Assembly: GCA_024274695.1 (NCBI GenBank)
Contig: JAJSAI010000004.1
Coordinates: 1 to 27,053 of the forward strand
Length of the DNA stretch: 27,053 nt
Origin: an archaeon
Lineage (GTDB): Archaea > B1Sed10-29 > JAJSAI01
Reading direction: 5' to 3'
A program made the position numbers and the translations under genes. A model generated the notes under the pieces. The model saw nothing but the letters and a program-made list of their open reading frames with translations. It had not been told where the DNA came from and did no database searches. Each line of letters opens with the position of its first letter. The stretch's first letter is position 1. Positions 1 through 15,698 of this stretch are shown here, one piece after another.

Positions 1-79
1 ACCATAAAAGGAAAACAAGTTTAAAAAACGTTCGCTTGCAGGCCGAAAACAGCAAAACAAAGCATAATCGCGGGAAAAG

Positions 80-124
80 TAAACCTTTTCCTGGTTTATT
101 CTGGTTGCATAAAAGGTTTAAATA
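80..124 (+). promoter_or_regulatory. Palindromic operator copy 1 (TAAACC-ttttcct-GGTTTA, 80-98), GTTGCA box and TATA box TTTAAATA (117-124) of the large secreted gene
   Basis: Inverted repeat with 7-nt spacer. The same motif recurs at 5233-5251(-), 10165, 10862 and 13142. The TATA box ends ~20 nt before ATG 145, consistent with a leaderless transcript. Confidence 0.75.
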
Positions 125-144
125 ATGCTCTCGCGTTATAACAC

Positions 145-3100
145 ATGCGCGCAAGAAACCTCACACTCACAATCATAACACTCACACTGATTCTGACCAC
201 CGGGCTCGCGCAAGAAGAGCCATGGTGGAACACACAGTACCAGTGCAGGGCCAAAATAGAAAATGTACAACCAGGAGACAACCACATCACACCATTCGTC
301 GACCTAGACTATCTTGCCACGCTCTGCAACATCACCAAAGTCCGCTCCTGGACAATCATACAAAACGGAAAACAACTCCCCACCTACTCCTACGGACCAG
401 ACCAAGAAAAAACCATAATATTCACGACCACACCAGAACAAAACACCATAAGCAAACACTGGAGCGTGACCAACCGCACCGGAGGAAAAGGAAAAGACAA
501 AGCAAGCATACCTTACAAAACAACCAACCAAAACGGCACGCTAACCATAACAACAGCACAAACAGCATCAGACTGGACAACATACTACCCACAAACCTAC
601 GCACAATACACGATAACCAAAAACATGTACCTCCCCAAACCAAAACAAATACAAAAAATAACGCTCACAATAGAACACCAGCAACCCAGACTAACAGCAT
701 CAGACACATCAATAAGAATCAACGGAAAAAGAGTATACAAGAAACACCTAGACGAGTACACCACACAAAAAACACTCATTATAAGCATACCCACAGAATA
801 CCTCAAGAAGGGAAACAACCAAATAACAATAACAATCAAGCACACCAATTTTCTGGACTTATACCGTGGAGGAATAACAGTCTACCAAAAAACAACCATC
901 CACAACCCCATAATAATCACAAAAAACAACCAAACTGTCACACCACCCACAACAACACCCAAAATAGGAAACCACTGGAACACCCAAAACCAAACAGGCA
1001 AAGACCCCTCCAGACCACACGCACTACTATCATCCCACCCCAAAAAAATAACCCAAAAAAACGGGACAATAACCATAACAACCGACCACCGCGGCTACTA
1101 CGACGGCAGCGAGGCATCAGCCATAGGAACATCCTGGGCAAAATACACACTAACACAAAACATATACATCCCAGACATAACACAAATACAATACCTCAAC
1201 ATAGACTTCAACACCACCGGAGGATCACTCTGGCCATACAGCAAGCTCAAAACAAAAATCACAATATTCGTCAACAACAAAAGAGCATACCATAAAAAAG
1301 TAGAACAAACCACCCACTTCAAAGCCAAAATACCCTCCAAACACTTCAAAAACGGGCCCAACCAAATAACAATCAAAATAACACACGTCCAATACCGCCT
1401 CGTCAACAAACCCCAAACCACAACAATATACAACATAACATTCACCACCAAAAACCAAACCCAAAAAACAACAAACACCCAAACAACAGCCTGGCTATAC
1501 TACACAGACAAAAAACTACCCCCAGGACCAACATACCAGCCCAAAACAACCATAACACCACCCAGAGCACTCGACAAACTAACCGGGTACTACTACCCCT
1601 GCTTTTACTCAGTAGCAAGCGAAACACAAACAACCACCATAAGCCACTATGAAACAACAACAGCAATACACGTAAAAGGAAAACTAAGAGTACTCGGCGC
1701 CCACAAAGCGCACGTGTACGTAACAACACCAACCAAAACCAAAGAGATATTCAGCAGAATGTACGCACCACTCATCACATTCCACAGAAAGCTTTCCCCA
1801 GAAACAGGAGAAAACCCAAAAGACTACATCACCCAACACAAACACATAACAGTAAAAGTAAGATACACCTCCAGTTGCTACATAGGAGGAGAAGCAGAAG
1901 TAAAAGAAATAACAGTATGGACAGAATACGTCCCATCCAACCCCACACAAATCACGAACATCGAAAAATACGCCCCAGTACCCCCCGCACCAACCAACCA
2001 AATCTTCCAACCAGCCCAAGGAACCAAACAAAAAAACAACCAAAAACCAGCCCAAGGAACCACAATCCCAATACTCCCCATCACAAGCGCAGCCGCAGCC
2101 GCGTACGCATACCACACCCTACTACGGAAAAAACAAGCACAACTAGACCAAAAAATACGCGCGCTCACACAAGCCTTCCGCCAAACAATAGCACAAAAAA
2201 CACGCCAACACCAGCGCGTGTCAGACGCAGACTACTCCAAGTTCTGGAAACAAATACGCGCCCTCAAGAACGCGTTCGCGTACTGGAAAAAATGGCTAGC
2301 GCCAGTACCAGAATGGCTGTACAAGCGCATGAACCCACACTCCAAAAACATATTCTACCGCCCACACTACATCAAACACAGGCTCAACCACCCAACCAAA
2401 TACGGAAAACCATACGCCAACCTCATACAACCAGACGGAACCACCAACACCAAACACATACAACAAACAATAAAACACATACAAAACACAACATACCCAC
2501 CAACCAAAACACACAAGCCAACAAAACCACACTGGCCCACCACAATACACACACCAAACAACACCTACCACATACTCACACCCATCACACCAAACACAAC
2601 ACAAATAATCATACAAAACACAAGAACAGGACAACTATACACACTCCCAATACAAACCAACCCCAAAAACAAGACCATAAAATACGACCTAAGGAACAAA
2701 AAAGAATACAAGTACAAGATCACCATCACACTACCAGACGGCAGCACAATCAAACACAACAACACCCAAGCACTACAACAATACCTAAAACAAAAAATCA
2801 CGCCAAACAACAAGATCAAAAACTACACCCAAACCCCCACAGCACTCACAATCACACTACAAGACAACACAACCATCACGCTCACCAAACCCAGCCAAGC
2901 ATTCCTAGAATGGTTCCAAAAAATACTCCAGTACCCAAGCAAATACCAAAACCACCCCTACAACAAGTTCACCCTATACTACCAAACAGCACAATGGCAA
3001 AAAGCAGCAACACTCCTCACCAGACACTGGCAACAAAAAGGAATCACGACCAGTATGACAACACAAGAAACCACCCAAAGACTACAAATGCTCGACAAAC

Positions 3101-4113
3101 TCACCCCGAACCTAAAACAAATCTGGAACAACCCCACCACCCTCCAACAACTCACACAACAAGAATGGAAACAAACACACACAACAAAAGAAGAAAACAA
3201 AGAAAACGGCCCAAGAGAAGAATTCAGACAAAAACTTAACGCCAAACAAGCAAGCCTAAAAGAATACCAGGAATACCTGAACACCGTAGAAAAAATCTAC
3301 GGGACAAAATACGCGTCAAAAGTAACAATAAAAGTAGACGCAAACACCACAGCACTCGAAGGCATAAAAATAAGAATATGGAACAGATACACACAAACAA
3401 CAATACTAGACACAACAGGCCACTTCACCAAAGAACTGCCACAAGAAGGAAAAACCGTGCCACCAGACAGCACACAACAATTCATACTACCACCCGGAAC
3501 ATACAACATACAAATAGACGCCCCAAGACACGCCAGCCAAATACACCAAATAACAATACTAGACGGAGAACACACCACAATAACAACCAAACTAAAAGAA
3601 CTCTACCCACCACCAAGAACCAACACACCCCTAGACCCAATAATAGACCTCATAAGCGGAAGAAGACCAATACAAAAACAACTAAGAATAGAACAACAAA
3701 CAAACTGGCTAGCAGACAACCTCGGACAAGACCCCCTCGGAACAGGAAGAAAAACCATAATCATATGGCCAGGAACCGAAACAATAATAACAAAACATAT
3801 CATAGTCAACGGAAAGACATACAAACTCACTGAAAAAAGTTTGTATCATCTAATGAAAGAACTGCGGGGACCAAGACCCTTAAAAAACGGGGAACCTAAT
3901 ACGAGATTAAACCAGATAAAGATGCTATTCAACGTAAAGACGGATGAAGAAGTTCTGGAATTAATTCAAAAAACTCTAAAATCCGGGAAGATAATAAAGA
4001 AAGACCCTCAAACAGTCAATTTCAAAATGATTATCAACGGAAAAGAGTTTATCGTTGGAGTAGACCCCACACAAAACGTAATAAAAACAGTAATAGGCAA
4101 GGCGATCCGATGA
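145..4113 (+). CDS. Large secreted/surface protein (1322 aa), probable polymorphic toxin with C-terminal RNase-like tip
   Basis: N-terminal signal peptide (MRARNLTLTIITLTLILTTGLA-QEE). WWNTQYQCRAKI resembles the DUF2341-type N-terminal motif. Two internal repeated beta-rich domains, a central hydrophobic segment ending in RKK, and a PEGA-like segment (LPPGTYNIQIDAPRHASQIHQITILDGEHTTITTKL). The last ~105 aa have different nucleotide composition and an alpha/beta RNase-toxin-like pattern. ATGA overlap with the next gene. Confidence 0.7.
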   Translation: MRARNLTLTIITLTLILTTGLAQEEPWWNTQYQCRAKIENVQPGDNHITPFVDLDYLATLCNITKVRSWTIIQNGKQLPTYSYGPDQEKTIIFTTTPEQNTISKHWSVTNRTGGKGKDKASIPYKTTNQNGTLTITTAQTASDWTTYYPQTYAQYTITKNMYLPKPKQIQKITLTIEHQQPRLTASDTSIRINGKRVYKKHLDEYTTQKTLIISIPTEYLKKGNNQITITIKHTNFLDLYRGGITVYQKTTIHNPIIITKNNQTVTPPTTTPKIGNHWNTQNQTGKDPSRPHALLSSHPKKITQKNGTITITTDHRGYYDGSEASAIGTSWAKYTLTQNIYIPDITQIQYLNIDFNTTGGSLWPYSKLKTKITIFVNNKRAYHKKVEQTTHFKAKIPSKHFKNGPNQITIKITHVQYRLVNKPQTTTIYNITFTTKNQTQKTTNTQTTAWLYYTDKKLPPGPTYQPKTTITPPRALDKLTGYYYPCFYSVASETQTTTISHYETTTAIHVKGKLRVLGAHKAHVYVTTPTKTKEIFSRMYAPLITFHRKLSPETGENPKDYITQHKHITVKVRYTSSCYIGGEAEVKEITVWTEYVPSNPTQITNIEKYAPVPPAPTNQIFQPAQGTKQKNNQKPAQGTTIPILPITSAAAAAYAYHTLLRKKQAQLDQKIRALTQAFRQTIAQKTRQHQRVSDADYSKFWKQIRALKNAFAYWKKWLAPVPEWLYKRMNPHSKNIFYRPHYIKHRLNHPTKYGKPYANLIQPDGTTNTKHIQQTIKHIQNTTYPPTKTHKPTKPHWPTTIHTPNNTYHILTPITPNTTQIIIQNTRTGQLYTLPIQTNPKNKTIKYDLRNKKEYKYKITITLPDGSTIKHNNTQALQQYLKQKITPNNKIKNYTQTPTALTITLQDNTTITLTKPSQAFLEWFQKILQYPSKYQNHPYNKFTLYYQTAQWQKAATLLTRHWQQKGITTSMTTQETTQRLQMLDKLTPNLKQIWNNPTTLQQLTQQEWKQTHTTKEENKENGPREEFRQKLNAKQASLKEYQEYLNTVEKIYGTKYASKVTIKVDANTTALEGIKIRIWNRYTQTTILDTTGHFTKELPQEGKTVPPDSTQQFILPPGTYNIQIDAPRHASQIHQITILDGEHTTITTKLKELYPPPRTNTPLDPIIDLISGRRPIQKQLRIEQQTNWLADNLGQDPLGTGRKTIIIWPGTETIITKHIIVNGKTYKLTEKSLYHLMKELRGPRPLKNGEPNTRLNQIKMLFNVKTDEEVLELIQKTLKSGKIIKKDPQTVNFKMIINGKEFIVGVDPTQNVIKTVIGKAIR
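454..1460 (+). repeat. Tandem duplicated ~165-aa domain inside the large protein (~454-930 and ~970-1460)
   Basis: Aligned motifs: HWxxxNxTG, QNGTLTITT/KNGTITITT, YAQYTITKNMYLP/WAKYTLTQNIYIP, INGKRVYKK/VNNKRAYHKK, IPTEYLKKGNNQITITIKH/IPSKHFKNGPNQITIKITH. Confidence 0.8.
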
Positions 4114-4502
4114 AAAAGACCCAAAATCAAACAGAACTAAGAAGGATTATCAGACAAATAAAACTATTAGAAACCGATGAAAAAACAAGAACAGAAAAAT
4201 GCTTCGACGATCCTGCAATAATCGCACTTTCACTACGTGACGCGTACGCCTGCCTAGGAGAACTATACCTAAAAGAAGCAGACATCAAACAAGCAATAAA
4301 CGCGTTCAAGAAAGCAAAAGAAAACGACCTCAAATTCATAAAATCAGAATTCTCATACGACCCAGAATACTTAAAAAAACAAATAAAATCCACACAGGCC
4401 TACTGGAACGAAAAAATAAACAAACTCACACAAAAGGAAGTGCTCCATCCCCACCAACACAGAAGAAAAAACCACAGCAAACAACCAAAGAAAGCCTCTT
4501 AG
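4110..4502 (+). CDS. Small TPR-like helical protein, candidate immunity protein
   Basis: Start overlaps the toxin-gene stop (ATGA). TPR-like motif AYACLGELYLKEADIKQAINAFKKA. Confidence 0.6.
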   Translation: MKKTQNQTELRRIIRQIKLLETDEKTRTEKCFDDPAIIALSLRDAYACLGELYLKEADIKQAINAFKKAKENDLKFIKSEFSYDPEYLKKQIKSTQAYWNEKINKLTQKEVLHPHQHRRKNHSKQPKKAS

Positions 4503-4569
4503 ACCCCGATAAAATAGCCATCACAACAGTATACAAAACAACCAAACTAGGCAAAAATTGGGTGAGAAT

Positions 4570-5016
4570 ATGGTAAAAGTAATGATAATGAACGAACCAG
4601 AAAAAGAGAGATTCACACTAATACTATTAAACAACAAAAAATACAAAGAAACACCCATCAATGACATAGTCCTCATAAGCATAGACACAGACAACGAATT
4701 GAAAGACATAGAAATACCCTACAATCTCAACAATTGCATAGGTCAAAACATACCAAAACCACCCGAGAAAACAACAAAAGACCCAAAAATAAAACTCCCC
4801 TCAGAAACACAAGAAGGAGTACTCTACGACCCGCAGGAACACACGATATACATACAACTAACACCCCAAACAGAACAAAAAATACAAATAAACAAAATGA
4901 TAACTCTAGGCAAAAACCAAAAAAAAGAACTTTCAGCTATATGGATCAAACTCCCAAAAGAGGTAAACCAAAAAATCTACCACAACCAAAAATTCTTACA
5001 AAAAATAGAACTCTGA
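4570..5016 (+). CDS. Tandem DUF2283-like protein, candidate antitoxin/immunity protein
   Basis: GGTGA RBS at 4561-4565 before ATG 4570. Two DUF2283-like halves: DIVLISIDTDNELKDIEIP and YDPQEHTIYIQL...ITLGKNQKKELSAIWI. Confidence 0.6.
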   Translation: MVKVMIMNEPEKERFTLILLNNKKYKETPINDIVLISIDTDNELKDIEIPYNLNNCIGQNIPKPPEKTTKDPKIKLPSETQEGVLYDPQEHTIYIQLTPQTEQKIQINKMITLGKNQKKELSAIWIKLPKEVNQKIYHNQKFLQKIEL

Positions 5017-5029
5017 CAAGAAATTCTTT

Positions 5030-5117
5030 AAAATCCAAAACAAACTACTACTATGATCCAACACAAGACATTCTAACAATTCCAGGACCAGCCAAACCCA
5101 CAAAATACGCATTCTGA
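5030..5117 (+). pseudogene. Fragment of another DUF2283-like gene
   Basis: Reads KSKTNYYYDPTQDILTIP, matching the YDPxxDxLxI start of DUF2283. There is no start codon, and it stops after a few more codons. Confidence 0.4.
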
Positions 5118-5187
5118 AAAAAGAAGAAAGAGAGGGAGAGAGCTCACCCGGCGCTCCCTGGAGAAAAGGAGAGCCTCTACGCTCGCA
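5117..5187 (-). ncRNA. Candidate ~70-nt small RNA
   Basis: A complete minus-strand promoter (operator, GTTGCA, TTTTTATT) points into a non-coding stretch GCGAGCGUAGAG-GCUCUC-cuuuucucca-GGGAGC-GCCGGGUGAGCUCUCUCCCUCUC. The stretch has a hairpin and ends in a U-rich tract CUUUCUUCUUUUUU. Confidence 0.45.
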
Positions 5188-5208
5188 AGAAAAACCCCGA
5201 ATCCTGGG

Positions 5209-5251
5209 AATAAAAAGCTTTTGCAACAAGAACAAACCAAACAAGAGTTTA
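5209..5251 (-). promoter_or_regulatory. Operator copy 2 and promoter on the minus strand; the operator also abuts the TATA box of the first TrmB gene
   Basis: Minus strand reads TAAACT-cttgttt-GGTTTG-ttcttGTTGCA-aaagc-TTTTTATT, nearly colinear with the 13142 promoter. The plus-strand TATA TTTTATATA (5253-5261) starts 2 nt from the operator. Confidence 0.65.
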
Positions 5252-5283
5252 GTTTTATATACTCCGCAGTCCCTTTCTGGATT

Positions 5284-6137
5284 ATGGGCTCCCTGGAGAA
5301 CGCCCTGAAAAGGCAGGGCTGACCGACTACGAGGTCAGGATCCTGTCAAGCCTCTCAAAGTATCCTGAGGGCCTCACCGCGGAAGAACTGTCCAAGATTG
5401 CGAGAGTGCCCCACGCCAAGATCTATTCTGTGCTGAACGGGCTGGCCAGGCACTCTCTCCTGCACTCTGACGAGAGCAGGCCCAAAAAGTACTATCCCCT
5501 GCCGGCAGACGCTCTCGCCGACGCGCTCATAAGACCGAGGAAAACCGAGCTAGACCAGATCCGGGAATCAGTGCTCGCAGCACTCTCCCCAGAACCCGGA
5601 CTCAAGCCCAACGTAAAAGCCCTGCACAGCAAAGAAGAAGTCTGGAGGAACGTGTACGCGATCCTCTCCGGAGCGAAAAGGAACATAAGAGCAATAAGCA
5701 TTGCCAAAATGTACGAGAAGTCAATGCTCATGCCAGACCTGATGAAACTAGGCACCAGGATATGCAATAACAAGGGCATCACGTTCAGGATACTCTCGAC
5801 AGAGTCACTGATGAAGATCCCGTTGTCAAAACTACCGTACGAAGCAGTAGAATTCTTGGCCAACCCAAGAGAGTCCAGCAGAGTCCTACCGGATGACATG
5901 CTACGCACTGACGTGCTGATCGCTGACGGAGAGAAAGCGGAAATACCCGCGATAGACCCTGAAACCCATGAGTACGTCTCGGGAGTGCTCATAGAAGGCA
6001 GGGAACTCGTGGCCCCGTTCGTGGCATACTTCGAGGACTTGTGGGAAAAAGCAGTCCCGATAGAAGACCAGGTAAGGAAAATGGCCAAAGAAGAGTTGAA
6101 AAGGAGAGGCATAAAGACTACTTTTTCCCGGTACTAG
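5284..6137 (+). pseudogene. TrmB-family transcriptional regulator 1, with a -1 frameshift at the A-run 5308-5311
   Basis: ATG 5284 gives MGSLENALK and then TGA at 5320. The -1 frame from 5310 continues KAGLTDYEVRILSSLSKYPEGLTAEELSKIARVPHAKIYSVLNGL (TrmB wHTH) into ORF 5406-6137, whose C-terminal effector domain includes YFEDLWEKA. It is paralogous to 8465 and 9313. Confidence 0.75.
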
Positions 6138-7128
6138 CAAGATGATACTTAAGCAAGAGTTCTAATCCTTCCACATACTCTCTCAAGTCTACGGATTTTA
6201 CCTTTGGAGCTAGCTTGAGGATATTATTTCTATGCATTTCCCATTCTTCTAGAAGATTTTTCTCTACTTCATTCTTTTTGATCTTTTGTTTTATATCCTC
6301 AGCTATTTTAGGATCGGAAACGCTTTCTTCCAACTCAGAAGGCGTTATGATCCCCTCGCTTATGGCGTATCCAAAAACTCCTGAGGAAAAATCTGTTTCT
6401 TTCATTTCTCTTTCCCAGGTGCTCAACCAGTTCCCTATTCTTGCCATCTGCTGCCCTTTCCACACTGCTTCTCTTAACAAGGGAAGATCACTCATATCGA
6501 ACTCTGGAGAGAACATGAGGTCTATGTCTGCAAACAAGTAAAACATCATATTATGAGCCCCATAAATTTTGGTCTCGAGATAGTTAAGCATTTTAACATT
6601 TTTGTTGGCAGTATAGGCATAAAGGAACGTATTCCACGTCTGTTTCAAATCGAACATAAACATTTCTCTGAATTCTTCCCATCTAGGTGCTTTTGATAAA
6701 ATTTCTACTGTCTTCCTCCAAGACTCTATTTCTATCTTTACTCTGTGTTGATCTTGAGTCACAAGATCAGCTGGTATCTTAATTTTTTCAAAGGGGACTT
6801 TCAGCATTACATCAAGAAGCCTTTTATTTTTATGAACATCTGAAATGTCATCGGTTACAGTTACCGCAAAGATCAAAATACTTTTCGCCAATGCTGATGA
6901 GTAACGATTACTTTCTGGAACGCAAGAAAGCATAAACCCTGGTTTCCGAGCGTATGTGAGATCCCAACACCATTTCCATAAAAATAAGGGCCTCTCTCCA
7001 CCCATTTTCTCATAATCTTCGGCAAGTTCATGGATTTCAGGCGGAAGTTCTACCTCCATGACTTTCCGAATGAACTTATTGATTCCTTCATTTTTTATTT
7101 CAGACAAGATCTGCTCGTATTTCTTCAT
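6118..7128 (-). CDS. Class I terpene synthase/isoprenoid-synthase-fold protein
   Basis: Helical 336-aa protein with a DDxxD motif (DDISD, 6838-6852) and an NSE-like motif (RIGNWLSTWERE, ~6406-6440) at typical spacing. Translationally coupled to the FIST gene. Confidence 0.7.
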   Translation of the reverse strand: MKKYEQILSEIKNEGINKFIRKVMEVELPPEIHELAEDYEKMGGERPLFLWKWCWDLTYARKPGFMLSCVPESNRYSSALAKSILIFAVTVTDDISDVHKNKRLLDVMLKVPFEKIKIPADLVTQDQHRVKIEIESWRKTVEILSKAPRWEEFREMFMFDLKQTWNTFLYAYTANKNVKMLNYLETKIYGAHNMMFYLFADIDLMFSPEFDMSDLPLLREAVWKGQQMARIGNWLSTWEREMKETDFSSGVFGYAISEGIITPSELEESVSDPKIAEDIKQKIKKNEVEKNLLEEWEMHRNNILKLAPKVKSVDLREYVEGLELLLKYHLASTGKK

Positions 7129-8405
7129 TTTTCCACCGAAATCACGTTTGCAGAGTATACTCCCAATATCACTCTCTCTCCAGGCTTTTTAAAATAATTG
7201 TTCATAGGATATACCGCAAGATAAGGCAACCCATCAAAATATTTTTCATATTTTTCTCTTAGCATCCAAGATTTATGAGAAAGCATATTCAAACGTATTC
7301 CTGAAGAATAAACAAATGCGAAAGCTTTTTCATTTTCAAATTCTTTTAACAATTCATCTACAGATTCTAAGATTTCTTTTCCAGAAACAGACAGAAGTAC
7401 TCCTTTTCGTCCTAAAGCCCTGTATCCTAAAAGGAGCTCTTCTCCGTAAATAGCTCCAACTCCTGTTGTATAAGTAGGGTTATCTTCAAATCCTATAGGA
7501 AAATAATCTGAAGTCTTGTAATAAAAGGCGGGCTCTATTACTTTAAATCGTTCTTCTGAAATTTTTGATATCTCTTCCAAAAACTGCCTTTTTGCACTTT
7601 TTCCATTTATTGAGACAACTATTCTATCATCATACGCAGTTTCGGTTATTGTAAATTTTTTATCTGTAGGTTTAGCTCCAAGCGTCCAATTCATGTAAAC
7701 ATTCTTGTTTATTCCAAAAAGTAACAGTACCGCAGAATTTCTTAGGGGAGTTTCGTTCAAAAAGACATAATTATCGAGACAGCTATAATCATCAACAGAA
7801 GAACCCCCAAAGATGTAATAATTTTCAAAATATTTTGATAATTCAATAATAAACGTCTCTTCTTTTCCTACTCCCGTACCAAGCAGGGCAGATATTCGCA
7901 TGCCTATTCTTGACAAGATTTTTCCCAAGACTACCGAGTTCACATTATTCACAGTACCTACAAAAGGCACTCTTGGGATTATAGCTCCTGAAACGAATGC
8001 AAACAAAAGCTTATTTCTGTGAGTGATTTTATTCCCTTTTCTCTTTATCATCTTCGCGGCTTGTCTTGCGGCCTTCCGCGGGTTTCGTTTCACGTTCTTG
8101 CCTACTCCCACGGCCACCTGCATTTCCGGGTCCTGGACCGCCATGGCAGTGACTCCCCTGGTGAACACGCCGTCCTGGTTCATGAATCCTGCCACCGTGC
8201 CCCCAACCAGCGGCGCGTCAGGAAACTCTTTCTTGATCCCCTCCAGCATTGGCTTGAACTCTTCCTTGTGGTGGATCGTGGAGAACAATAGAATGAACTT
8301 GGGCTCGGGCGTCTCTCGCTTTATTTTTTCAGTAATCTCTCTCGCGATCTCTTCTCCCTTCCACTTCCTGCTCGTTGCCACGCAAACCTTCAGTTCTCCG
8401 CTCAT
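7125..8405 (-). CDS. FIST N/C-domain signal-sensing protein
   Basis: FIST_N motifs PKFILLFST...PDAPLVGGTVAG...GVTAMA, IFGGSSVDD, FTITET..RIVVSINGKSA and a FIST_C-like tail. Confidence 0.8.
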   Translation of the reverse strand: MSGELKVCVATSRKWKGEEIAREITEKIKRETPEPKFILLFSTIHHKEEFKPMLEGIKKEFPDAPLVGGTVAGFMNQDGVFTRGVTAMAVQDPEMQVAVGVGKNVKRNPRKAARQAAKMIKRKGNKITHRNKLLFAFVSGAIIPRVPFVGTVNNVNSVVLGKILSRIGMRISALLGTGVGKEETFIIELSKYFENYYIFGGSSVDDYSCLDNYVFLNETPLRNSAVLLLFGINKNVYMNWTLGAKPTDKKFTITETAYDDRIVVSINGKSAKRQFLEEISKISEERFKVIEPAFYYKTSDYFPIGFEDNPTYTTGVGAIYGEELLLGYRALGRKGVLLSVSGKEILESVDELLKEFENEKAFAFVYSSGIRLNMLSHKSWMLREKYEKYFDGLPYLAVYPMNNYFKKPGERVILGVYSANVISVEK

Positions 8406-8430
8406 CCTAATAAAAAAGAGGAAACCGGAG

Positions 8431-8440
8431 TATTTAAATA
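8431..8440. promoter_or_regulatory. Perfectly palindromic TATA box (TATTTAAATA) shared by the divergent FIST and TrmB2 genes
   Basis: Self-complementary 10-mer centred in a 59-bp intergenic gap, ~25 nt from ATG 8405(-) and from ATG 8465(+). Confidence 0.65.
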
Positions 8441-8464
8441 ATTTCAGCCCATTCTCTCTTTTTG

Positions 8465-9304
8465 ATGGACCTGCGGGAAGCTCTCGGAATGCTCGGTCTC
8501 TCCTCTTACGAGGCCAGGGCGTTCAGGTTCCTGTTGGATCATCCCAAGGCAAGTGCGGAAGAAGTGTCGCAGGGCTCTGGAATCCCGATGGCAAAAGTGT
8601 ACACTGTCCTTGGTAGCCTGGAAAAGAGAGGACTGGTCAGGACCTTCTTGTCCAGGCCCAAAAAGTATTCTCTCGTACCCCCAGAGGACCTAAGGAGAGC
8701 ATTCCTGGAGTCCAAGAAAAAGGAACTAGAAACGGCTGAAAAGGCTGTCGAAAAAATAGTCTCGGAAGCAGTCCTGCCAGAAGAAGAGGAAACCACAATC
8801 TTCACGGTCTACTCAGAGCAGGCAGTCTGGCGGGAGGTTGAAAGGATCAAGCTTTCCGCGAAAAGGTACGTGAAAAACCTCGGACCCGCGTTCCAATGGG
8901 AATACGCACTAAAACAAGAAAAACTGATACAAACCGTCCTGAAGATACTGAAAAGAGGTGTGAAAGTATACAACATCCTCCCGGACGACTATACCCCTAA
9001 TTTCAAGAGCCTCTCAACAAGCTTCATGAGGATGGCTGCCCACAAGAACGAGAACTTCAGAATACTAGACCACAACAAGATAGTGACTCCCATACAAGTG
9101 GCAGATGATTATTACATAGGAATCCCGTTCATTGACATGGAGCACAAAAAACTGATAGGAGGAATGGTCATCCACAGCCGGGAGCTCGGGGTGATAGCGT
9201 CCCACTATTTTGACATGCTCTGGGAACAAGCGGACCACGTTGAGGACAAGATACGCACGACAGCCAGGATAGAACTGGCAAAAAGAAAGATTACAAGGAG
9301 GTAA
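8465..9304 (+). CDS. TrmB-family transcriptional regulator 2
   Basis: LGLSSYEARAF...SAEEVSQGSGIPMAKVYTVLGSLEKRGLV...RPKKYSLVPP wHTH. C-terminal effector-binding domain ending YFDMLWEQA. Confidence 0.9.
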   Translation: MDLREALGMLGLSSYEARAFRFLLDHPKASAEEVSQGSGIPMAKVYTVLGSLEKRGLVRTFLSRPKKYSLVPPEDLRRAFLESKKKELETAEKAVEKIVSEAVLPEEEETTIFTVYSEQAVWREVERIKLSAKRYVKNLGPAFQWEYALKQEKLIQTVLKILKRGVKVYNILPDDYTPNFKSLSTSFMRMAAHKNENFRILDHNKIVTPIQVADDYYIGIPFIDMEHKKLIGGMVIHSRELGVIASHYFDMLWEQADHVEDKIRTTARIELAKRKITRR

Positions 9305-9312
9305 AAAAAGGA

Positions 9313-10167
9313 ATGCACGGGCTCGAGGACGAACTCAAAAAGTTCGGGCTGAACTCTTACCAGGCCAAGGCAGTCGTTTTCCTGCTGGAGAACCCTGATT
9401 CCACCGCGGAAGAGGTGTCAAAGTATTCTGGAATCCCCATGGCGAAAGTGTACCAGGTGCTCGACTCCCTCGTGAAAATGGGCCTGGCCTCGTATTCTCT
9501 GGGAAGACCAAAAAGATACTCTGCCCTGCCCGCGGACCAGATCGTGTCAAGGCTCGTTGGCAGGATAGAAGACAGGCTCGCGTCGCTGAAGGATTCTGCC
9601 AGAACTCTGCTGGAACAACTCTCGGAAGCGAGCGTGGAAGGAAGGCTCCAGCCAGTGAAGATAGTGGACTCAGAAGAAGGCGCGTGGGCGGAGTACGGCA
9701 AGATGGTGCGCAGGACGAAAGAATACATTTACAACACCTCAGATTCTCTCGGGTGGGACAGCGGTTACTCCCACGGGAACCTGATGCTTCCAGCGTACTA
9801 TGACCTCATCCAAAAAAGGAAAGTTAGGATAAGGTGCCTCTACCCTGATAATTACAATCTCCTGCACACGGTCACCCTGGTCCCTAAGGGAATTCGGAGA
9901 AAGCTTTTCAAAATATACTCTTATCCTGGGCACGAGGCGCGCAAGATAAAAAAGGATATAACCCTGTTCTTCTCAGTGTCTGACGACGAGAGAGTATTCC
10001 TTGTCCTCAGGGACGGGAACGAGATCGTGGGAGGCTTGTTCATAAACGATCCCTTGACCGCGAGGACGTTCAGGGAAGTGTACGACAAACTGTGGGAAAA
10101 AGGGGTTCCTGTAACCAGCCGGATGGTTGAGGCTGCAATAAGGTATGCGGGAAAACTGCTCAAGTAA
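9313..10167 (+). CDS. TrmB-family transcriptional regulator 3
   Basis: FGLNSYQAKA...TAEEVSKYSGIPMAKVYQVLDSLVKMGL...GRPKRYSALP wHTH. C-terminal domain ending YDKLWEKG. Confidence 0.9.
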   Translation: MHGLEDELKKFGLNSYQAKAVVFLLENPDSTAEEVSKYSGIPMAKVYQVLDSLVKMGLASYSLGRPKRYSALPADQIVSRLVGRIEDRLASLKDSARTLLEQLSEASVEGRLQPVKIVDSEEGAWAEYGKMVRRTKEYIYNTSDSLGWDSGYSHGNLMLPAYYDLIQKRKVRIRCLYPDNYNLLHTVTLVPKGIRRKLFKIYSYPGHEARKIKKDITLFFSVSDDERVFLVLRDGNEIVGGLFINDPLTARTFREVYDKLWEKGVPVTSRMVEAAIRYAGKLLK

Positions 10168-10207
10168 ACCTTTTCTCGGTTTAATCCGGGCGCGGAAGGG
10201 ATATAAA
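10165..10207 (+). promoter_or_regulatory. Operator copy 3 (TAAACC-ttttctc-GGTTTA, 10165-10183) and TATA box ATATAAA (10201-10207)
   Basis: Same palindrome and 7-nt spacer, 17 bp upstream of a TATA box before the methyltransferase. Confidence 0.7.
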
Positions 10208-10243
10208 CTCTTGTTCTCCTTCTTAGAGTAAGAGGGGGTTATC

Positions 10244-10864
10244 GTGAAAAGACTCTACTCTGAGGGGGTCAAGTACTACGAGGACAACCCGCCCAATCCC
10301 ACGAGAGTGTACGAGAACTGGCTGGAGCTCTTGAAGAAGACGGATTACGCGAGCGTGCTTGACATAGGGTGCGGGCTGGGAGACTTTACCCAGATGCTGC
10401 GGGACGAAGGATACGAAGTGACCGGGATAGACAGTTCAGAGCAAATGATCCGGGCCGCAAGAAAAAGGCATCCTGAGTGCAGGTTCGTGCACGCGAACGC
10501 GGTGGACTACAAGCCAGCGCAAGAGCTGGGAATAATGGCGTTCACGGTCCTGCCACACCTCTCCCCAAAGGAACTCGGGGCCCTGTTCAAGAGGATGGGG
10601 CAAGGTGACTATACTAAGGCCTTGTGGTTCGACTACCCCAAGTACGTGAAACAACTGCTGGACGGGGTCACGAGCATGCCGGGAATAGACTTTGTCTTCC
10701 ACCACACGGGCAGGATAGAATACCATGTGGGAGAGTACGAGGAAGAGCTGTGGCTGGTCACACCCTCGCTCGTGGAAGCCCTGACAGGAGCCTGCGGGCT
10801 TGACTCCAGGACCCTAAAAGAAGGCAGGATAAGGTACTATCAAGAGTGCACGCTCGGGAACTAA
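10244..10864 (+). CDS. Class I SAM-dependent methyltransferase
   Basis: Motif I VLDIGCGLG, VTGIDSSEQMI and FVHANA. Confidence 0.9.
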   Translation: MKRLYSEGVKYYEDNPPNPTRVYENWLELLKKTDYASVLDIGCGLGDFTQMLRDEGYEVTGIDSSEQMIRAARKRHPECRFVHANAVDYKPAQELGIMAFTVLPHLSPKELGALFKRMGQGDYTKALWFDYPKYVKQLLDGVTSMPGIDFVFHHTGRIEYHVGEYEEELWLVTPSLVEALTGACGLDSRTLKEGRIRYYQECTLGN

Positions 10865-10935
10865 ACCCTTTACAGGTTTAATCGTGTTGCAGATTCTTTA
10901 TAAACCTGTTCTGCTGGTTTAGTTCCAGGAGGTGA
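10862..10935 (+). promoter_or_regulatory. Operator copy 4 (TAAACC-ctttaca-GGTTTA, 10862-10880), GTTGCA, TATA TTTATAAA (10897-10904) and RBS GGAGGTGA (10928-10935)
   Basis: Full promoter and strong RBS ahead of ATG 10941. A second TAAACC-N9-GGTTTA overlaps the TATA box (10901-10921). Confidence 0.75.
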
Positions 10936-10940
10936 CGAGA

Positions 10941-11039
10941 ATGGTGTGGAGCTTGGTTGCTGAAAACGCTGGAGGAGACGAGTACAGAGAGTGGGGGACC
11001 TGGATAGACACGTACGGTGAGAGAGAGGAGGACGAATGA
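10941..11039 (+). CDS. Putative RiPP precursor peptide 1 (32 aa): MVWSLVAENAGGDEYREWGTWIDTYGEREEDE
   Basis: Missed by the ORF track. Strong RBS and own promoter, directly upstream of a radical SAM gene. Aromatic residues at 3-residue spacing. Aligns with peptide 2. Confidence 0.8.
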   Translation: MVWSLVAENAGGDEYREWGTWIDTYGEREEDE

Positions 11040-11054
11040 AAAAAGTGAGCAAGA

Positions 11055-12875
11055 ATGCAAGGGAGAAAGCTTCCTGACGGCAGGTTCGAAGGAGAAGGAC
11101 AAGCTGAGGACACACTGTTGCTGGAGAAAGTGTGCAATGCCTTCGGCCTACCGGCAGGAGAAGAAAGGGAGGTGAGGGCAGGGCTCAGGCAAAAGCTTTC
11201 CCAGGACCCAAAAGAATTCCTGCAGGGGATCAAGAGACTCAAGCAAGAAAATCCTCCCAGGCTCGCGGGAGTCCTACTGGAAATGGTGGGGTCAGCGGTC
11301 TCAGGCAGGCTCTGGAAAGCCCTAAGAAAAGAGTGCGAGCACGCGGGGATCGACTTCTTCCAGGCAGTCTCGCGTGTGAAAAGCCCTCTACTGCACGGGA
11401 GGACAGTAGAACAAGAGTTCGAAGGTTATCCTGAAAGAGTAAGACTATTGCTAACTGTAATGCAGGAGCTCGCGAACTTTGAGGAGAAAACCCTGTGGTA
11501 CTACTGGAAAGAAAAAAGGGAAGAACAGTACATCATTCCTCCCCTGGAAAGAGTCTCGCAGGATCCACCAATATTCCTGAATCCTGAGACAGGCGGCTGG
11601 GCAGTGGTAACAGACCCGAGCCTGCTGGACCCTGCAAGGTACGCTGGCAGGGGGCAGATGCTCCAGGCGGAAGTGCAGGGCACCGCGTACATCAGTGAAG
11701 GAGTCCTGACAGAACAGGAAAAGAAAGATCTTGACGCTCTGGTCAAGGCAAGGGTAGCATACCACACGGGATCCAACACCCCCTCTCTCATGGAAGTAAG
11801 GTTCAGGCCAACGTTCCTGTCAATAATGCTAACAGAAAAATGCAACTTCGCGTGCGAGTACTGCTACCAGGACCATGACCCAGGAAAAAAGGAGGCTAAC
11901 GCGAGAGAACTTGACGCGCAGGCGAGCAGGATCCTGTCCTGGTTCAGGACCATAAAGAGCATAGAATTCTTCGGAGGAGAACCCCTTCTAGAACTAGGAA
12001 AGCTTAGGATGCTCCTGCTTAACGAGCTCGTCAGGGCAAGAGACCTGTTCATGGAAACCAACGGAAACCTGCTCACCAGGGAGGTCGCCAGGCTCCTCAA
12101 GGTGCACGGGGTGAGCGTGGGAGTGAGCCTTGACGGCCCGCCGGAAAAGAACAGACACAGGAAAACAAGGGCAGGAGAACAAGCGTACGAGACCGCGGTC
12201 AGGGCAATGGAAAACCTTAAGGCAGAGGGACATTCTTATGGAATGATCTCCGTCCTGACCCCCTCTAACGCGGGAATGGGAGAAGACTTCCTTGAGTGGG
12301 CTGAAGAACTTGGAGTCCACTCCTTTCACGTGAACTACTGCAACCATCCTGAACTCGCTCCCAGCGCAGGGCAGGCGTTCGAGTTCTTCAAGAAAACCTT
12401 TGAAGCGTACGTCGAACAAGAGCACTACAAGAGAATAGGGTACTCTAACTTCAAGTGGGCGATCGAAGCCCTTTCAACACCCCAACACCAGAGGAGCCTA
12501 ATGTGCGGCAGGAGCCCGTGCGGGGCGGGCATCGCGCACCTGACCATAACCCCTGACGCTAGGATCGCCCCGTGCCCAAGGCTCTCGGAAAACAGGGTCA
12601 GCCCAGAGAACACCTCCGACCTTTTCAGAAGGTTCTGGAGCGTGTACTCTCACAACATACTGACCACGAGCCCCTGCTCAGAATGCGCGTACCGGAACCT
12701 CTGCACAGGAGCGTGTCCTGAAACAAGCTCAGGAAAAGTGTTCCGGGAATACTGCAGGTTCCAGAGAATGCTCTGGCCCTGGCTCATGCAGAAAGTCTAC
12801 GAGAACCCGAAATACCTGGAGGCGGTAAAAAGATGGAAGAGGCTGAAGGTCTCACCAATTACCCCGGGACCGTGA
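11055..12875 (+). CDS. Radical SAM/SPASM peptide maturase 1 with long N-terminal extension
   Basis: CNFACEYC (CxxxCxxC), FFGGEPLL, ETNGNLL and VSLDGP. SPASM cysteines MCGRSPCGAG...APC...CSECAYRNLCTGAC...YC. RRE-like segment FLNPETGGWAVV before the catalytic core. Confidence 0.9.
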   Translation: MQGRKLPDGRFEGEGQAEDTLLLEKVCNAFGLPAGEEREVRAGLRQKLSQDPKEFLQGIKRLKQENPPRLAGVLLEMVGSAVSGRLWKALRKECEHAGIDFFQAVSRVKSPLLHGRTVEQEFEGYPERVRLLLTVMQELANFEEKTLWYYWKEKREEQYIIPPLERVSQDPPIFLNPETGGWAVVTDPSLLDPARYAGRGQMLQAEVQGTAYISEGVLTEQEKKDLDALVKARVAYHTGSNTPSLMEVRFRPTFLSIMLTEKCNFACEYCYQDHDPGKKEANARELDAQASRILSWFRTIKSIEFFGGEPLLELGKLRMLLLNELVRARDLFMETNGNLLTREVARLLKVHGVSVGVSLDGPPEKNRHRKTRAGEQAYETAVRAMENLKAEGHSYGMISVLTPSNAGMGEDFLEWAEELGVHSFHVNYCNHPELAPSAGQAFEFFKKTFEAYVEQEHYKRIGYSNFKWAIEALSTPQHQRSLMCGRSPCGAGIAHLTITPDARIAPCPRLSENRVSPENTSDLFRRFWSVYSHNILTTSPCSECAYRNLCTGACPETSSGKVFREYCRFQRMLWPWLMQKVYENPKYLEAVKRWKRLKVSPITPGP

Positions 12876-13144
12876 AGGGAACACTAATAACGAACGTTGA
12901 AAACGCTACAAGGTATCCTGACCCAGTACTGTACTGTGACAATTTCCTGATAGACCACGTGGTCTACTTGGACAGGCTCAAAGCAGTCCTGATACGGAGG
13001 AAGAACTTCTTGTGCCACGCGGCAATAGTCTGCAGGGAAAAGAAGATCCCGTCCGCTGTGGGAGTTGAGATCAGGGAACCGAAAGAAGGGGCTAGGGTCA
13101 CCGTGCACGCGGACACTGTCAAAACAAGAGTGGTGCTAGAGTAA
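12833..13144 (+). CDS. Stand-alone PEP-utilising enzyme mobile (phosphohistidine swivel) domain 1
   Basis: GLTNYPGTVKG start and LCHAAIVCREKKIPSAVG phospho-His signature. RBS GGAGGCGG. Overlaps the end of the rSAM gene. Confidence 0.8.
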   Translation: MEEAEGLTNYPGTVKGTLITNVENATRYPDPVLYCDNFLIDHVVYLDRLKAVLIRRKNFLCHAAIVCREKKIPSAVGVEIREPKEGARVTVHADTVKTRVVLE

Positions 13145-13215
13145 ACTTTTCCCCAGTTTATTCTGGTTGCAGAATCTTTTTATTACTCTTCCGCAGGGTT
13201 ATTTTCTGGAGGTGG
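13142..13215 (+). promoter_or_regulatory. Operator copy 5 (TAAACT-tttcccc-AGTTTA, 13142-13160), GTTGCA, TATA TTTTTATTA (13177-13185) and RBS GGAGGTGG (13208-13215)
   Basis: Symmetric C>T/G>A change keeps the palindrome. Same architecture as the 10862 promoter. Confidence 0.75.
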
Positions 13216-13220
13216 TTTTG

Positions 13221-13376
13221 ATGGCGGAGTACATGACATCCTCGTGCACGAGCGGAGGGGATGACTGGCCCAGGTACTCCAAGTCAGGAGGGTACTCAAG
13301 GTCAGGAGGCTGGGGAGAGTACGAGGACTGGAGAGACCACTACAACAAGTACTATGACAGGGACGAGTACGATTAA
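13221..13376 (+). CDS. Putative RiPP precursor peptide 2 (51 aa): MAEYMTSSCTSGGDDWPRYSKSGGYSRSGGWGEYEDWRDHYNKYYDRDEYD
   Basis: RBS before ATG 13221. Trp/Tyr-rich with repeated aromatic-x-x units. Directly upstream of the second radical SAM gene. Confidence 0.85.
   Translation: MAEYMTSSCTSGGDDWPRYSKSGGYSRSGGWGEYEDWRDHYNKYYDRDEYD
13273..13308 (+). repeat. 18-bp tandem repeat in precursor 2 (YSKSGG/YSRSGG)
   Basis: ggtactccaagtcaggag followed by ggtactcaaggtcaggag. Confidence 0.75.
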
Positions 13377-13410
13377 TTGGGGTGTGAGGTTGGAAGGCTG
13401 GTCGCAGGTA

Positions 13411-15393: not shown

Positions 15394-15698
15394 CAGCGTC
15401 AAGAGGAAAAGCGGTCGGGCGCGCGTGCCTTGACCTCAAGGACTTCAGGGACGGTGACATAATAATCGCCGAGACGACTTACGCGCCACTGGTGCCCCTC
15501 ATGAAAAGAGCGGCCGCGATCGTCACCAGCACAGGAGGAGTGCTCTCGCACGCGGCAGTAGTATCAAGAGAACTGGGGATACCGTGCGTGGTCAGGGCAG
15601 CAGGAGTCCTGAGCGTGCCTCACGGCGCGCTCGTGGAAGTGGACGCCACCGCCCCGAAGGGCAGGGTAAGGGTCGTCGGAAAAAATGATGTTTCCTGA
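15369..15698 (+). CDS. Stand-alone PEP-utilising enzyme mobile (phosphohistidine swivel) domain 2
   Basis: MEEEFEGVTASRGKAVGRA...GDIIIAETT...AAAIVTSTGGVLSHAAVVSRELGIPCVV...GALVEVDA. RBS GGGGTG at 15355-15360. Confidence 0.9.
   Translation: MEEEFEGVTASRGKAVGRACLDLKDFRDGDIIIAETTYAPLVPLMKRAAAIVTSTGGVLSHAAVVSRELGIPCVVRAAGVLSVPHGALVEVDATAPKGRVRVVGKNDVS

Follow-up and report, generated by a model that had tools for sequence, protein, structure and literature searches.

A palindromic repeat, TAAACY-N7-RGTTTA, recurs along a 27,053-nucleotide stretch of DNA (the window; contig C30 of the genome G000) from an archaeon of the Micrarchaeota (DPANN), whose genome is assembled to 825 kb in 32 contigs and is 91% complete. 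The observations described below make it very probable that the repeat forms the upstream half of a common promoter and belongs to a functional cis-regulatory promoter module. We consider it rather probable that the palindrome is bound by one of the TrmB-family paralogs introduced below, and hold with similar confidence to the reading as a whole, in which the palindrome would serve a TrmBL2-like TrmB paralog as its upstream operator and would probably activate. For activation of the attached units by the module, taken by itself, the balance is about even. As a common block stands before dispersed genes, these genes are likely to be switched together.

Anatomy and conservation of the module

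Exact matches to TAAACYNNNNNNNRGTTTA lie at 80-98, 10165-10183, 10862-10880 and 13142-13160 of the window. A fifth copy, with one mismatch, is found at 5233-5251, where reading of the minus strand gives the layout of the other copies; the five sites claimed in an earlier note on this DNA are thus all present. Exact matches occurred in 0 of 100 dinucleotide-preserving shuffles of the window. The palindrome has a 6+7+6 layout with the core AAC-N11-GTT. Its 7-nucleotide spacers are pyrimidine-rich, as the note had also stated (7/7, 7/7, 5/7, 7/7 and 6/7 pyrimidines on the strand of the downstream unit), and the copy at 13142 carries the symmetric double substitution described there, C6>T plus G14>A.

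The conserved block extends over about 45 nucleotides and consists of the palindrome (19 nucleotides), 5 nucleotides (mostly TTCNG), the box GTTGCA, 5-7 A-rich nucleotides and a TATA box. The A-rich nucleotides stand where the TFB recognition element (BRE) belongs. The original description of a 19-nucleotide element therefore holds for the palindrome but not for the extent of the element, which includes GTTGCA as a second box. As claimed, GTTGCA follows the palindrome in four of the five window copies, the copy at 10165 carrying GGCGCG instead, and the TATA-like octamer starts 16-18 nucleotides past the palindrome in all five. The TATA boxes and transcription starts discussed here were read from the sequence alone. 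The modules of the window are the following.

80-124, plus strand: module 1, with the palindrome at 80-98, GTTGCA at 104-109 and a TATA-like octamer at 117-124; heads the open reading frame (ORF) 145-4113
10165-10208, plus strand: module 2, with the palindrome at 10165-10183 (its TAA is the stop of the TrmB gene 9313-10167), GGCGCG at 10189-10194 and a TATA-like box at about 10201-10208; heads the methyltransferase gene
10862-10904, plus strand: module 3, with the palindrome at 10862-10880 (its TAA is the methyltransferase stop), GTTGCA at 10886-10891 and TATA at 10897-10904; heads the cassette of short ORF A
13142-13184, plus strand: module 4, with the palindrome at 13142-13160 (its TAA is the stop of ORF 12833-13144), GTTGCA at 13166-13171 and a TATA-like box at 13177-13184; heads the cassette of short ORF B
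5209-5251, minus strand: module 5, with the palindrome at 5251-5233 (one mismatch), GTTGCA at 5227-5222 and a TATA-like box at 5216-5209; no protein gene downstream

Two further modules, at C19:5444-5473 (minus strand) and C29:13076-13105, bring the total in G000 to seven. The proposed "island-wide" regulon of the earlier note therefore extends to two other contigs and takes in a fourth TrmB paralog. To the right of 13160 no copy is present at up to two mismatches, which agrees with the remark that the genes on the right lack the motif. Five more copies are carried by G001 (Candidatus Micrarchaeota archaeon), the sole genome of the same genus in the comparison and, like G000, a draft assembly. 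When these 12 copies are aligned along their downstream units, the palindrome positions A3, A4, C5, G15, T16 and T17, the TC of the linker and the G of GTTGCA are invariant. The outer positions of the left half are more variable than those of the right half, and the spacer is TTTTCC-like and keeps one orientation relative to TATA in 12/12 copies. The palindrome cells are complementary in 91.7% of 72 cases, versus 50-54% when the partner is slid by one column.

In all seven G000 copies the palindrome is situated upstream of the BRE/TATA region of the unit that it faces. A TATA-like box is found 15-19 nucleotides past the palindrome in six of them, the C29 copy being ambiguous, and the centre of the palindrome is about 29-31 bp, or about three helical turns, upstream of the centre of TATA. 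The archaeal TATA box is usually centred near -26/-27, which would place the centre of the palindrome near -57 and leave GTTGCA abutting the BRE.

The 30-nucleotide core of the module has a mean identity of 75% over the 21 pairs of the seven G000 copies, versus 28% for the 30 nucleotides upstream and 40% for the 30 nucleotides downstream, which supports the claim that the copies represent one conserved cis-element tied to promoters. The genes behind the modules do not show such similarity. The radical SAM enzymes of the module 3 and module 4 cassettes are 26% identical and their swivel proteins 30%; judged by these sequences, the two enzymes are old paralogs. The genes behind modules 1 and 2 and the C19 module are mutually unrelated. 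A conserved module before diverged or unrelated genes suggests a constrained cis-element rather than a recent copy. Three of the five G001 modules stand at matching promoters, namely past a TrmB gene, before a second TrmB gene and before the start of a large gene; the last (C16:63-92) matches module 1, with 85% identity over 73 nucleotides. In the intergenic region shared by C19 and its G001 counterpart C15, the module forms a conserved block, and the sequence directly upstream of it cannot be aligned. For orthologous DNA of the two genomes, identity amounts to 73-79% on the C19/C15 stretch and to 77% over the KaiC region.

A 29-nucleotide pattern allowing up to two mismatches gave six matches in G000, the copy at 10165 making the seventh, and five in G001; the reversed control pattern gave none in the scanned genomes. 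Among 40 related genomes only G001 carries several copies (four exact, one with one mismatch). When one genome per GTDB species was scanned for exact matches, 22 stretches were returned, of which three, with four matches between them, are contigs of G001. The remaining 19 hold one match each, in non-archaeal and mostly bacterial records, and this is no more than chance gives, the expectation being about 35 by our own arithmetic with equal base frequencies. Metagenome contigs, scanned with a slightly stricter pattern, and viral contigs gave no match, and no multi-copy or archaeal holder of the module beyond G000 and G001 was found in the collections scanned. As far as these collections of genomes, metagenomes and viruses reach, the module is thus specific to the genus.

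GTTGCA followed by a TATA-like hexamer within 3-9 nucleotides occurs only seven times in the 825 kb of G000, in five modules and in two half-modules devoid of the palindrome (C21:5503 and C23:31896). The possibility that GTTGCA is a general promoter feature of this genome was rejected, since GTTGCA-TATA pairs occur only in modules and half-modules. Some exact 19-mers were not counted as modules. The one at C28:7086-7104 lies within a zinc-ribbon ORF, is followed by neither GTTGCA nor TATA, and is read as chance; in that of the genome G008 GTTGCA and TATA are 21 nucleotides away, not 5, and that of G014 has neither. A promoter class of an alternative TFB was rejected as well: the PF00382 search gave one locus, C29:9247-9798 (two cyclin repeats), in this 91% complete genome.

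Four of the seven G000 copies begin at the preceding stop codon or 2 nucleotides past it, three at a TAA and the C29 copy after a TAG. The three TAA stops are those of ORFs 9313-10167, 10244-10864 and 12833-13144, as had been noticed before. Such positions, together with runs of three or four T in the spacers, would suit a signal at the transcript level, that is a terminator or a processing hairpin that closes the upstream gene at its 3' end. Stretches of 27 nucleotides do fold as hairpins at -3.2 to -7.8 kcal/mol, and in four of the seven z is between -3.1 and -7.8. Nevertheless, this explanation is highly improbable. Two of the seven G000 copies (5233 and C19) and one of the five G001 copies are positioned between divergent genes, without a co-directional gene upstream, and have nothing to terminate. 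An archaeal intrinsic terminator has a run of at least five T directly after the gene; the longest T run in the palindrome is four, and T5 in modules 4 and 5 is found only inside TATA. The other three of the seven folds are not clearly distinct from shuffles (z of -0.18, -1.71 and -1.82), and the 12 copies contain no covariation beyond conservation (one double change; 117-190 of 500 shuffles score as high). Finally, a terminator leaves no role for GTTGCA or for the fixed distance to TATA. Genome-wide, the copies are tied to promoters, with a clear TATA-like box in six of the seven in G000.

TrmB paralogs and the proposed mode of action

That local TrmB genes accompany the repeat, as the earlier note had supposed, is confirmed by a Pfam scan of window ORFs, in which TrmB-family genes adjoin module copies. 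Three paralogs are encoded in the window and a fourth on C19, and such genes stand immediately beside three of the seven copies (5233, 10165 and C19). Those of the window are listed here.

8462-9304, plus strand: TrmB paralog 1, PF01978 at 71 bits; own promoter with TATA at about 8431-8440, without the module
9313-10167, plus strand: TrmB paralog 2, candidate regulator, PF01978 at 66 bits; in tandem with 8462-9304, its stop codon inside module 2
5284-6137, plus strand: TrmB paralog 3; the ATG frame stops at 5320-5322 and the TrmB domain continues in another frame (open at 5253-6137)

Paralog 3 needs a frame change before 5320, which points to a pseudogene (frameshift) or to an assembly error. 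The PF01978 scores of 8462, 9313 and the C19 paralog (71.4, 66.4 and 49.9 bits) are well above the curated cut-off of 25.6. With the NCBIfam models of TrmB, TrmBL1 and TrmBL2, the best scores of 8462 and 9313 are 29-52 bits versus cut-offs of 500-650, and the two proteins are not equivalogs of these regulators. No sugar-binding effector-domain family was found in the candidate regulators in Pfam at E-values up to 0.01.

The G001 copy of paralog 9313 is 97-99% identical in protein sequence. Between G000 and G001 the C19 paralog agrees at 55 of its first 60 aligned positions, the helix-turn-helix among them, the whole proteins being 51% identical and the C-terminal part the most diverged; in both genomes this gene has the module in its own promoter. 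A close copy of 8462 was not found in G001, where the best match is 35% identical, but the G001 contig ends inside the 9313 ortholog and the copy may simply be unassembled. Short TrmB homologs from another family of the same order have GTTTA-N5-GTTTTA upstream of their own TATA in four genomes, and the best G000 match of the three such homologs checked is paralog 9313 (36-42%).

By combining these observations, it is possible to propose how the module might work. A dimer of a TrmBL2-like TrmB-family protein would bind the palindrome, and the GTT of GTTGCA, 10 bp or one helical turn further, might provide a third half-site. The bound regulator would then aid the loading of TBP and TFB on the promoter. 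In this manner one signal would switch on three radical-SAM/swivel cassettes, the methyltransferase, the large secreted protein and a TrmB gene. The regulator might be the product of 9313-10167, the stop codon of which lies inside a palindrome, or the C19 paralog, whose own promoter contains the module. Seen from the plus strand, the palindrome at 5233-5251 ends 1 nucleotide before a second TATA (5253-5261), which serves TrmB paralog 3. Abutting TATA in this way, it would more likely block TFB and repress.

A position upstream of BRE/TATA is the geometry of an activator, as the note had maintained, according to the portions of the review PMC4158304 that concern TrmB. As summarized there, characterised TrmB regulators recognize inverted repeats with spacers of 3-8 nucleotides; sites upstream of BRE/TATA activate and sites at or downstream of TATA repress, and autoregulation is frequent.

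Several points weigh against an operator of this kind. We infer promoter activity, binder and sign of regulation alike from the sequence. The palindrome is unlike all three published TrmB motifs as given in the TrmB portions of PMC4158304, and TrmBL2, the closest solved relative, is tabulated there as a chromosomal protein on coding as well as intergenic DNA rather than as an activator with a specific site. In 12/12 copies the asymmetric spacer points the same way, which a symmetric dimer does not require; the asymmetry may be due to common descent, DNA bending or another factor. The promoter of the 8462-9313 operon is without the module. The comparative support is from close kin, only two genomes of one genus carrying the module. 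As to the homologs of the other family, their four promoters are orthologous and amount to about one weak event, a thin basis, and the loose GTTTA pattern is expected by chance about four times in the roughly 185 kb scanned (our own estimate).

The same promoter module might instead contain a repressor operator, or its palindrome might be bound by a factor other than a TrmB paralog. The approach to within 1 nucleotide of the paralog 3 TATA at 5233-5251 is a repressing geometry, and TrmBL2, the closest solved relative, is tabulated as a repressor as well as a chromosomal protein in the part of PMC4158304 on this family. The TrmB helix-turn-helix profile matches 18 places in the genome at E<=0.01 (11 over the cut-off), and genes of the Lrp/AsnC type adjoin the C19 copy. 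However, seven of seven G000 palindromes lie upstream of BRE/TATA, and the TrmB repression described in that part of the review is exerted from sites at or downstream of TATA. A binder of another kind would also have to be reconciled with the TrmB genes directly beside three of the seven copies. We regard both variants together as unlikely, and prefer the upstream operator for a TrmB paralog.

Units behind the modules and possible exchange of cassettes

The protein-coding units headed by the window modules, with reference to which the proposed regulon is described, are as follows.

145-4113, plus strand: secreted protein of 1322 residues, module 1 target; signal-like N-terminal segment and internal hydrophobic segment; low G+C and strongly skewed composition
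10244-10864, plus strand: class I SAM-dependent methyltransferase (family scans), module 2 target
10941-11039, plus strand: short ORF A, 32 residues, module 3 target; GGAGGTG 7 nucleotides upstream; candidate precursor peptide
11055-12875, plus strand: radical SAM enzyme A, module 3 target; resembles peptide maturases, below every NCBIfam cut-off
12833-13144, plus strand: small protein A, module 3 target; PEP-utilizers mobile (swivel) domain
13221-13376, plus strand: short ORF B, 51 residues, module 4 target; many W, Y, D, G and R residues; GGAGGTGG lies upstream; candidate precursor peptide
13261-15393, plus strand: radical SAM enzyme B, module 4 target; weak SPASM match below the Pfam cut-off, best NCBIfam matches being radical SAM/SPASM peptide maturases
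15306-15698, plus strand: small protein B, module 4 target; PEP-utilizers mobile domain

The ATG at 145 is only 20 nucleotides past TATA, and the mRNA of the first unit is therefore probably leaderless. The 1322-residue protein matched no Pfam family and no NCBIfam family and gave no usable Atlas match, and these searches lend no support to the label "toxin-like" that it had been given. The listed start of enzyme B overlaps ORF B; its true start is thus probably further downstream. Short ORFs with ribosome-binding sites precede enzymes A and B, both of which are below every family cut-off. With the C29 module, which heads a third pair of radical SAM and swivel-domain genes, three such cassettes are headed by modules, and in two of these a short peptide ORF comes first. 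The C19 module heads the TrmB-family gene; the pair of genes divergent from it consists of an unassigned ORF of 348 residues and a fourth small swivel ORF.

The swivel domain is the sole domain of five small ORFs in G000: 12833-13144 and 15306-15698 in the window, C29:14613-15635, C19:6623-6919 and C26:44956-45294. Three belong to module-headed units and one is divergent from the module-headed TrmB gene of C19. Four of the five directly follow a radical SAM enzyme, and that of C19 follows the unassigned 348-residue ORF. The C26 cassette of radical SAM and swivel genes has no module by any pattern scan. The pairing of a radical SAM enzyme with a phosphohistidine swivel domain is not known to us to have a described role in peptide modification, although no literature search was aimed at it. 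At the end of contig C26 (46500-47496), long repeated stretches occur in a sequence read as tRNA-like; they are followed by the AT-rich cassette without module, in which the radical SAM gene has an internal stop. By its sequence, this region may be an integrated element.

The G001 modules head a 50-residue Cys-rich ORF with a different radical SAM enzyme, a 29-residue ORF with the methyltransferase ortholog and another radical SAM enzyme, the C19-type TrmB gene and the start of a contig-truncated gene; one module is geneless. The 50-residue ORF is a Cys-rich CxC repeat. ORF B of G000 is packed with triplets of the type aromatic-X-basic/acidic (WPR, YSK, YSR, YNK). By their sequences, these two ORFs look like precursors of RiPPs (peptides made by the ribosome and modified after translation) of different classes at the same locus. 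Aromatic-X-basic/acidic triplets are associated with cyclophane-forming enzymes, and a Trp-Arg cross-linking enzyme is reportedly the subject of one paper. The short ORFs that have ribosome-binding sites and stand directly before radical SAM enzymes are those at 10941-11039 and 13221-13376 of the window, L022 2696-2848 (minus strand) and L081 1409-1498.

Downstream of module 5 there is a T-rich stretch at about 70 nucleotides. The small RNA candidate of the earlier note, taken as lying downstream of this module, gained no support: its fold has z = 0.44, and no Rfam match was found in the window. The sequences 5153-5165 and 5288-5300 form an exact direct repeat of 13 nucleotides. A leftward RNA from the 5233 module would carry the complement of 5153-5165 and could therefore pair with codons 2-6 of the TrmB paralog 3 mRNA.

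The content of the cassettes differs between the two genomes at the modules, and this hints at a second role of the module in cassette shuffling. A further explanation has to be weighed at this point, in which the module serves chiefly as a junction between cassettes; homologous recombination would swap or permute them there between strains, and the promoter would travel along. The stretch that runs from the TrmB gene through the palindrome has 93.5% identity (window 9417-10189 versus G001 C24, L022 2899-3671), and clear homology ends at 10189, 6 nucleotides past the palindrome. Beyond this point G000 has the methyltransferase and two cassettes, and G001 has the Cys-rich peptide, whose radical SAM enzyme is a different one (26-31% identity), and then the geneless module. 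The methyltransferase gene (84% nucleotide identity) and module 3 with its leader (77% over 79 nucleotides) are in opposite order in the two genomes. The beginning of four of the seven G000 copies at, or 2 nucleotides past, the stop of the preceding gene also fits a junction. An identity of 93.5%, compared with 73-79% elsewhere, suggests recent exchange between the lineages, with strong constraint as the other possibility.

On the other hand, the comparison is one of two genomes, a block of 45 nucleotides is short for homologous recombination, and no recombinase family was detected in the Pfam scan of 23 window ORFs (five further ORFs lie outside the scan). The strict TATA spacing and the presence of the module in TrmB promoters are left unexplained by a junction. 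As the principal function of the module, a junction is improbable. As a second role it has real support, and it is compatible with the promoter-operator and does not exclude it.

It is tempting to carry the promoter-operator reading one step further, although the result is doubtful as a whole. The module might be a portable promoter-operator head, so that any cassette carrying it would join one TrmB-type regulon. The locus would then be a recombinase-free, integron-like array of modified-peptide cassettes, which strains of this symbiotic archaeon would swap, permute and lose through recombination between modules. The fast-evolving C-terminal domains of the TrmB paralogs might sense these peptides themselves, in a manner resembling quorum sensing.

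The surroundings of these units have some further features. The G+C content is 35-45% at 1-5000 and 6000-8000 of the window, versus 51% in the genome, and bases 1-5000 have an extreme skew of A over T and C over G. The ORF of 1322 residues, a FIST-domain gene (7125-8405, minus strand) and an unassigned ORF of 336 residues look foreign in composition. KaiC-like genes on G001 contig C4, which match the end of G000 contig C25 (20566-21515), are situated directly upstream of a module, and C25 may thus join the start of the window. On G001 C16 (L023 875-5905) a protein of 1676 residues combines a signal peptide with repeated Ig-like regions and, in its middle, a hydrophobic anchor; its C-terminal region ends, by eye, in a PD-(D/E)xK nuclease-like motif.

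Gene regulation in DPANN archaea is almost unexplored, and we found no paper with both Micrarchaeota and TrmB in its title or abstract. The system described here is a small and clean putative regulon, with a 45-bp module, two or three candidate regulators and seven units in a genome of 825 kb. It would join genes for biosynthesis resembling that of modified peptides with a large surface protein, which are plausible tools towards a host or competitors. If the modules also mark points of cassette exchange, a reduced genome would keep a variable repertoire under one control.

Comparison with known systems

In its layout and position, the element would act like an upstream operator of the TrmB family, yet it copies none of the published motifs. 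Those listed in the TrmB portions of PMC4158304 are TACT-N3-AGTA for TrmB, TATCAC-N5-GTGATA (the glycolytic motif of the Thermococcales) for TrmBL1/Tgr and TACT-N7-8-GAGTA for the Halobacterium TrmB. Like the euryarchaeal operators described there, the element is an inverted repeat with a spacer and of similar total length, stands next to BRE/TATA where position predicts the sign of regulation, and has a regulator gene nearby; one site lies in the promoter of a TrmB gene itself, as in the autoregulation proposed for some of these regulators. Compared with the same account, the half-sites here are AAAC/GTTT rather than TACT or TATCAC, an extra box, GTTGCA, is placed beside the BRE, and in place of sugar metabolism the target units are cassettes for peptide modification and a secreted protein. 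The hosts of the described operators are Euryarchaeota, whereas the module belongs to a DPANN archaeon whose genome measures 825 kb.

TrmBL2 of Pyrococcus and Thermococcus (PDB 5box, 5bpd and 5bqt) aligns with paralog 9313 over residues 9-264 of 284 (E about 1e-6), and in both proteins a linker joins a winged helix-turn-helix to a C-terminal domain. Paralog 9313 scores 29 bits with the NCBIfam TrmBL2 model, the cut-off of which is 530, and is not an equivalog. As tabulated in the portion of PMC4158304 devoted to it, TrmBL2 is a chromosomal protein that binds coding as well as intergenic DNA, whereas the element described here is specific and present in few copies.

Two other systems are comparable by analogy. 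Integron arrays also consist of variable cassettes bounded by short inverted repeats, with a content that varies among close relatives. They differ in that the element here measures 19-45 rather than 57-141 nucleotides and each cassette has its own promoter; there is, moreover, no integrase among the 23 Pfam-scanned window ORFs and no sign of site-specific recombination. The streptococcal Rgg/SHP operons for radical-SAM RiPPs belong to bacteria, their regulator family and their promoter machinery are unrelated to those considered here, and the resemblance is one of analogy only. Nevertheless, they too have a regulator gene beside operons of a short peptide and a radical SAM enzyme, and a promoter element is shared.

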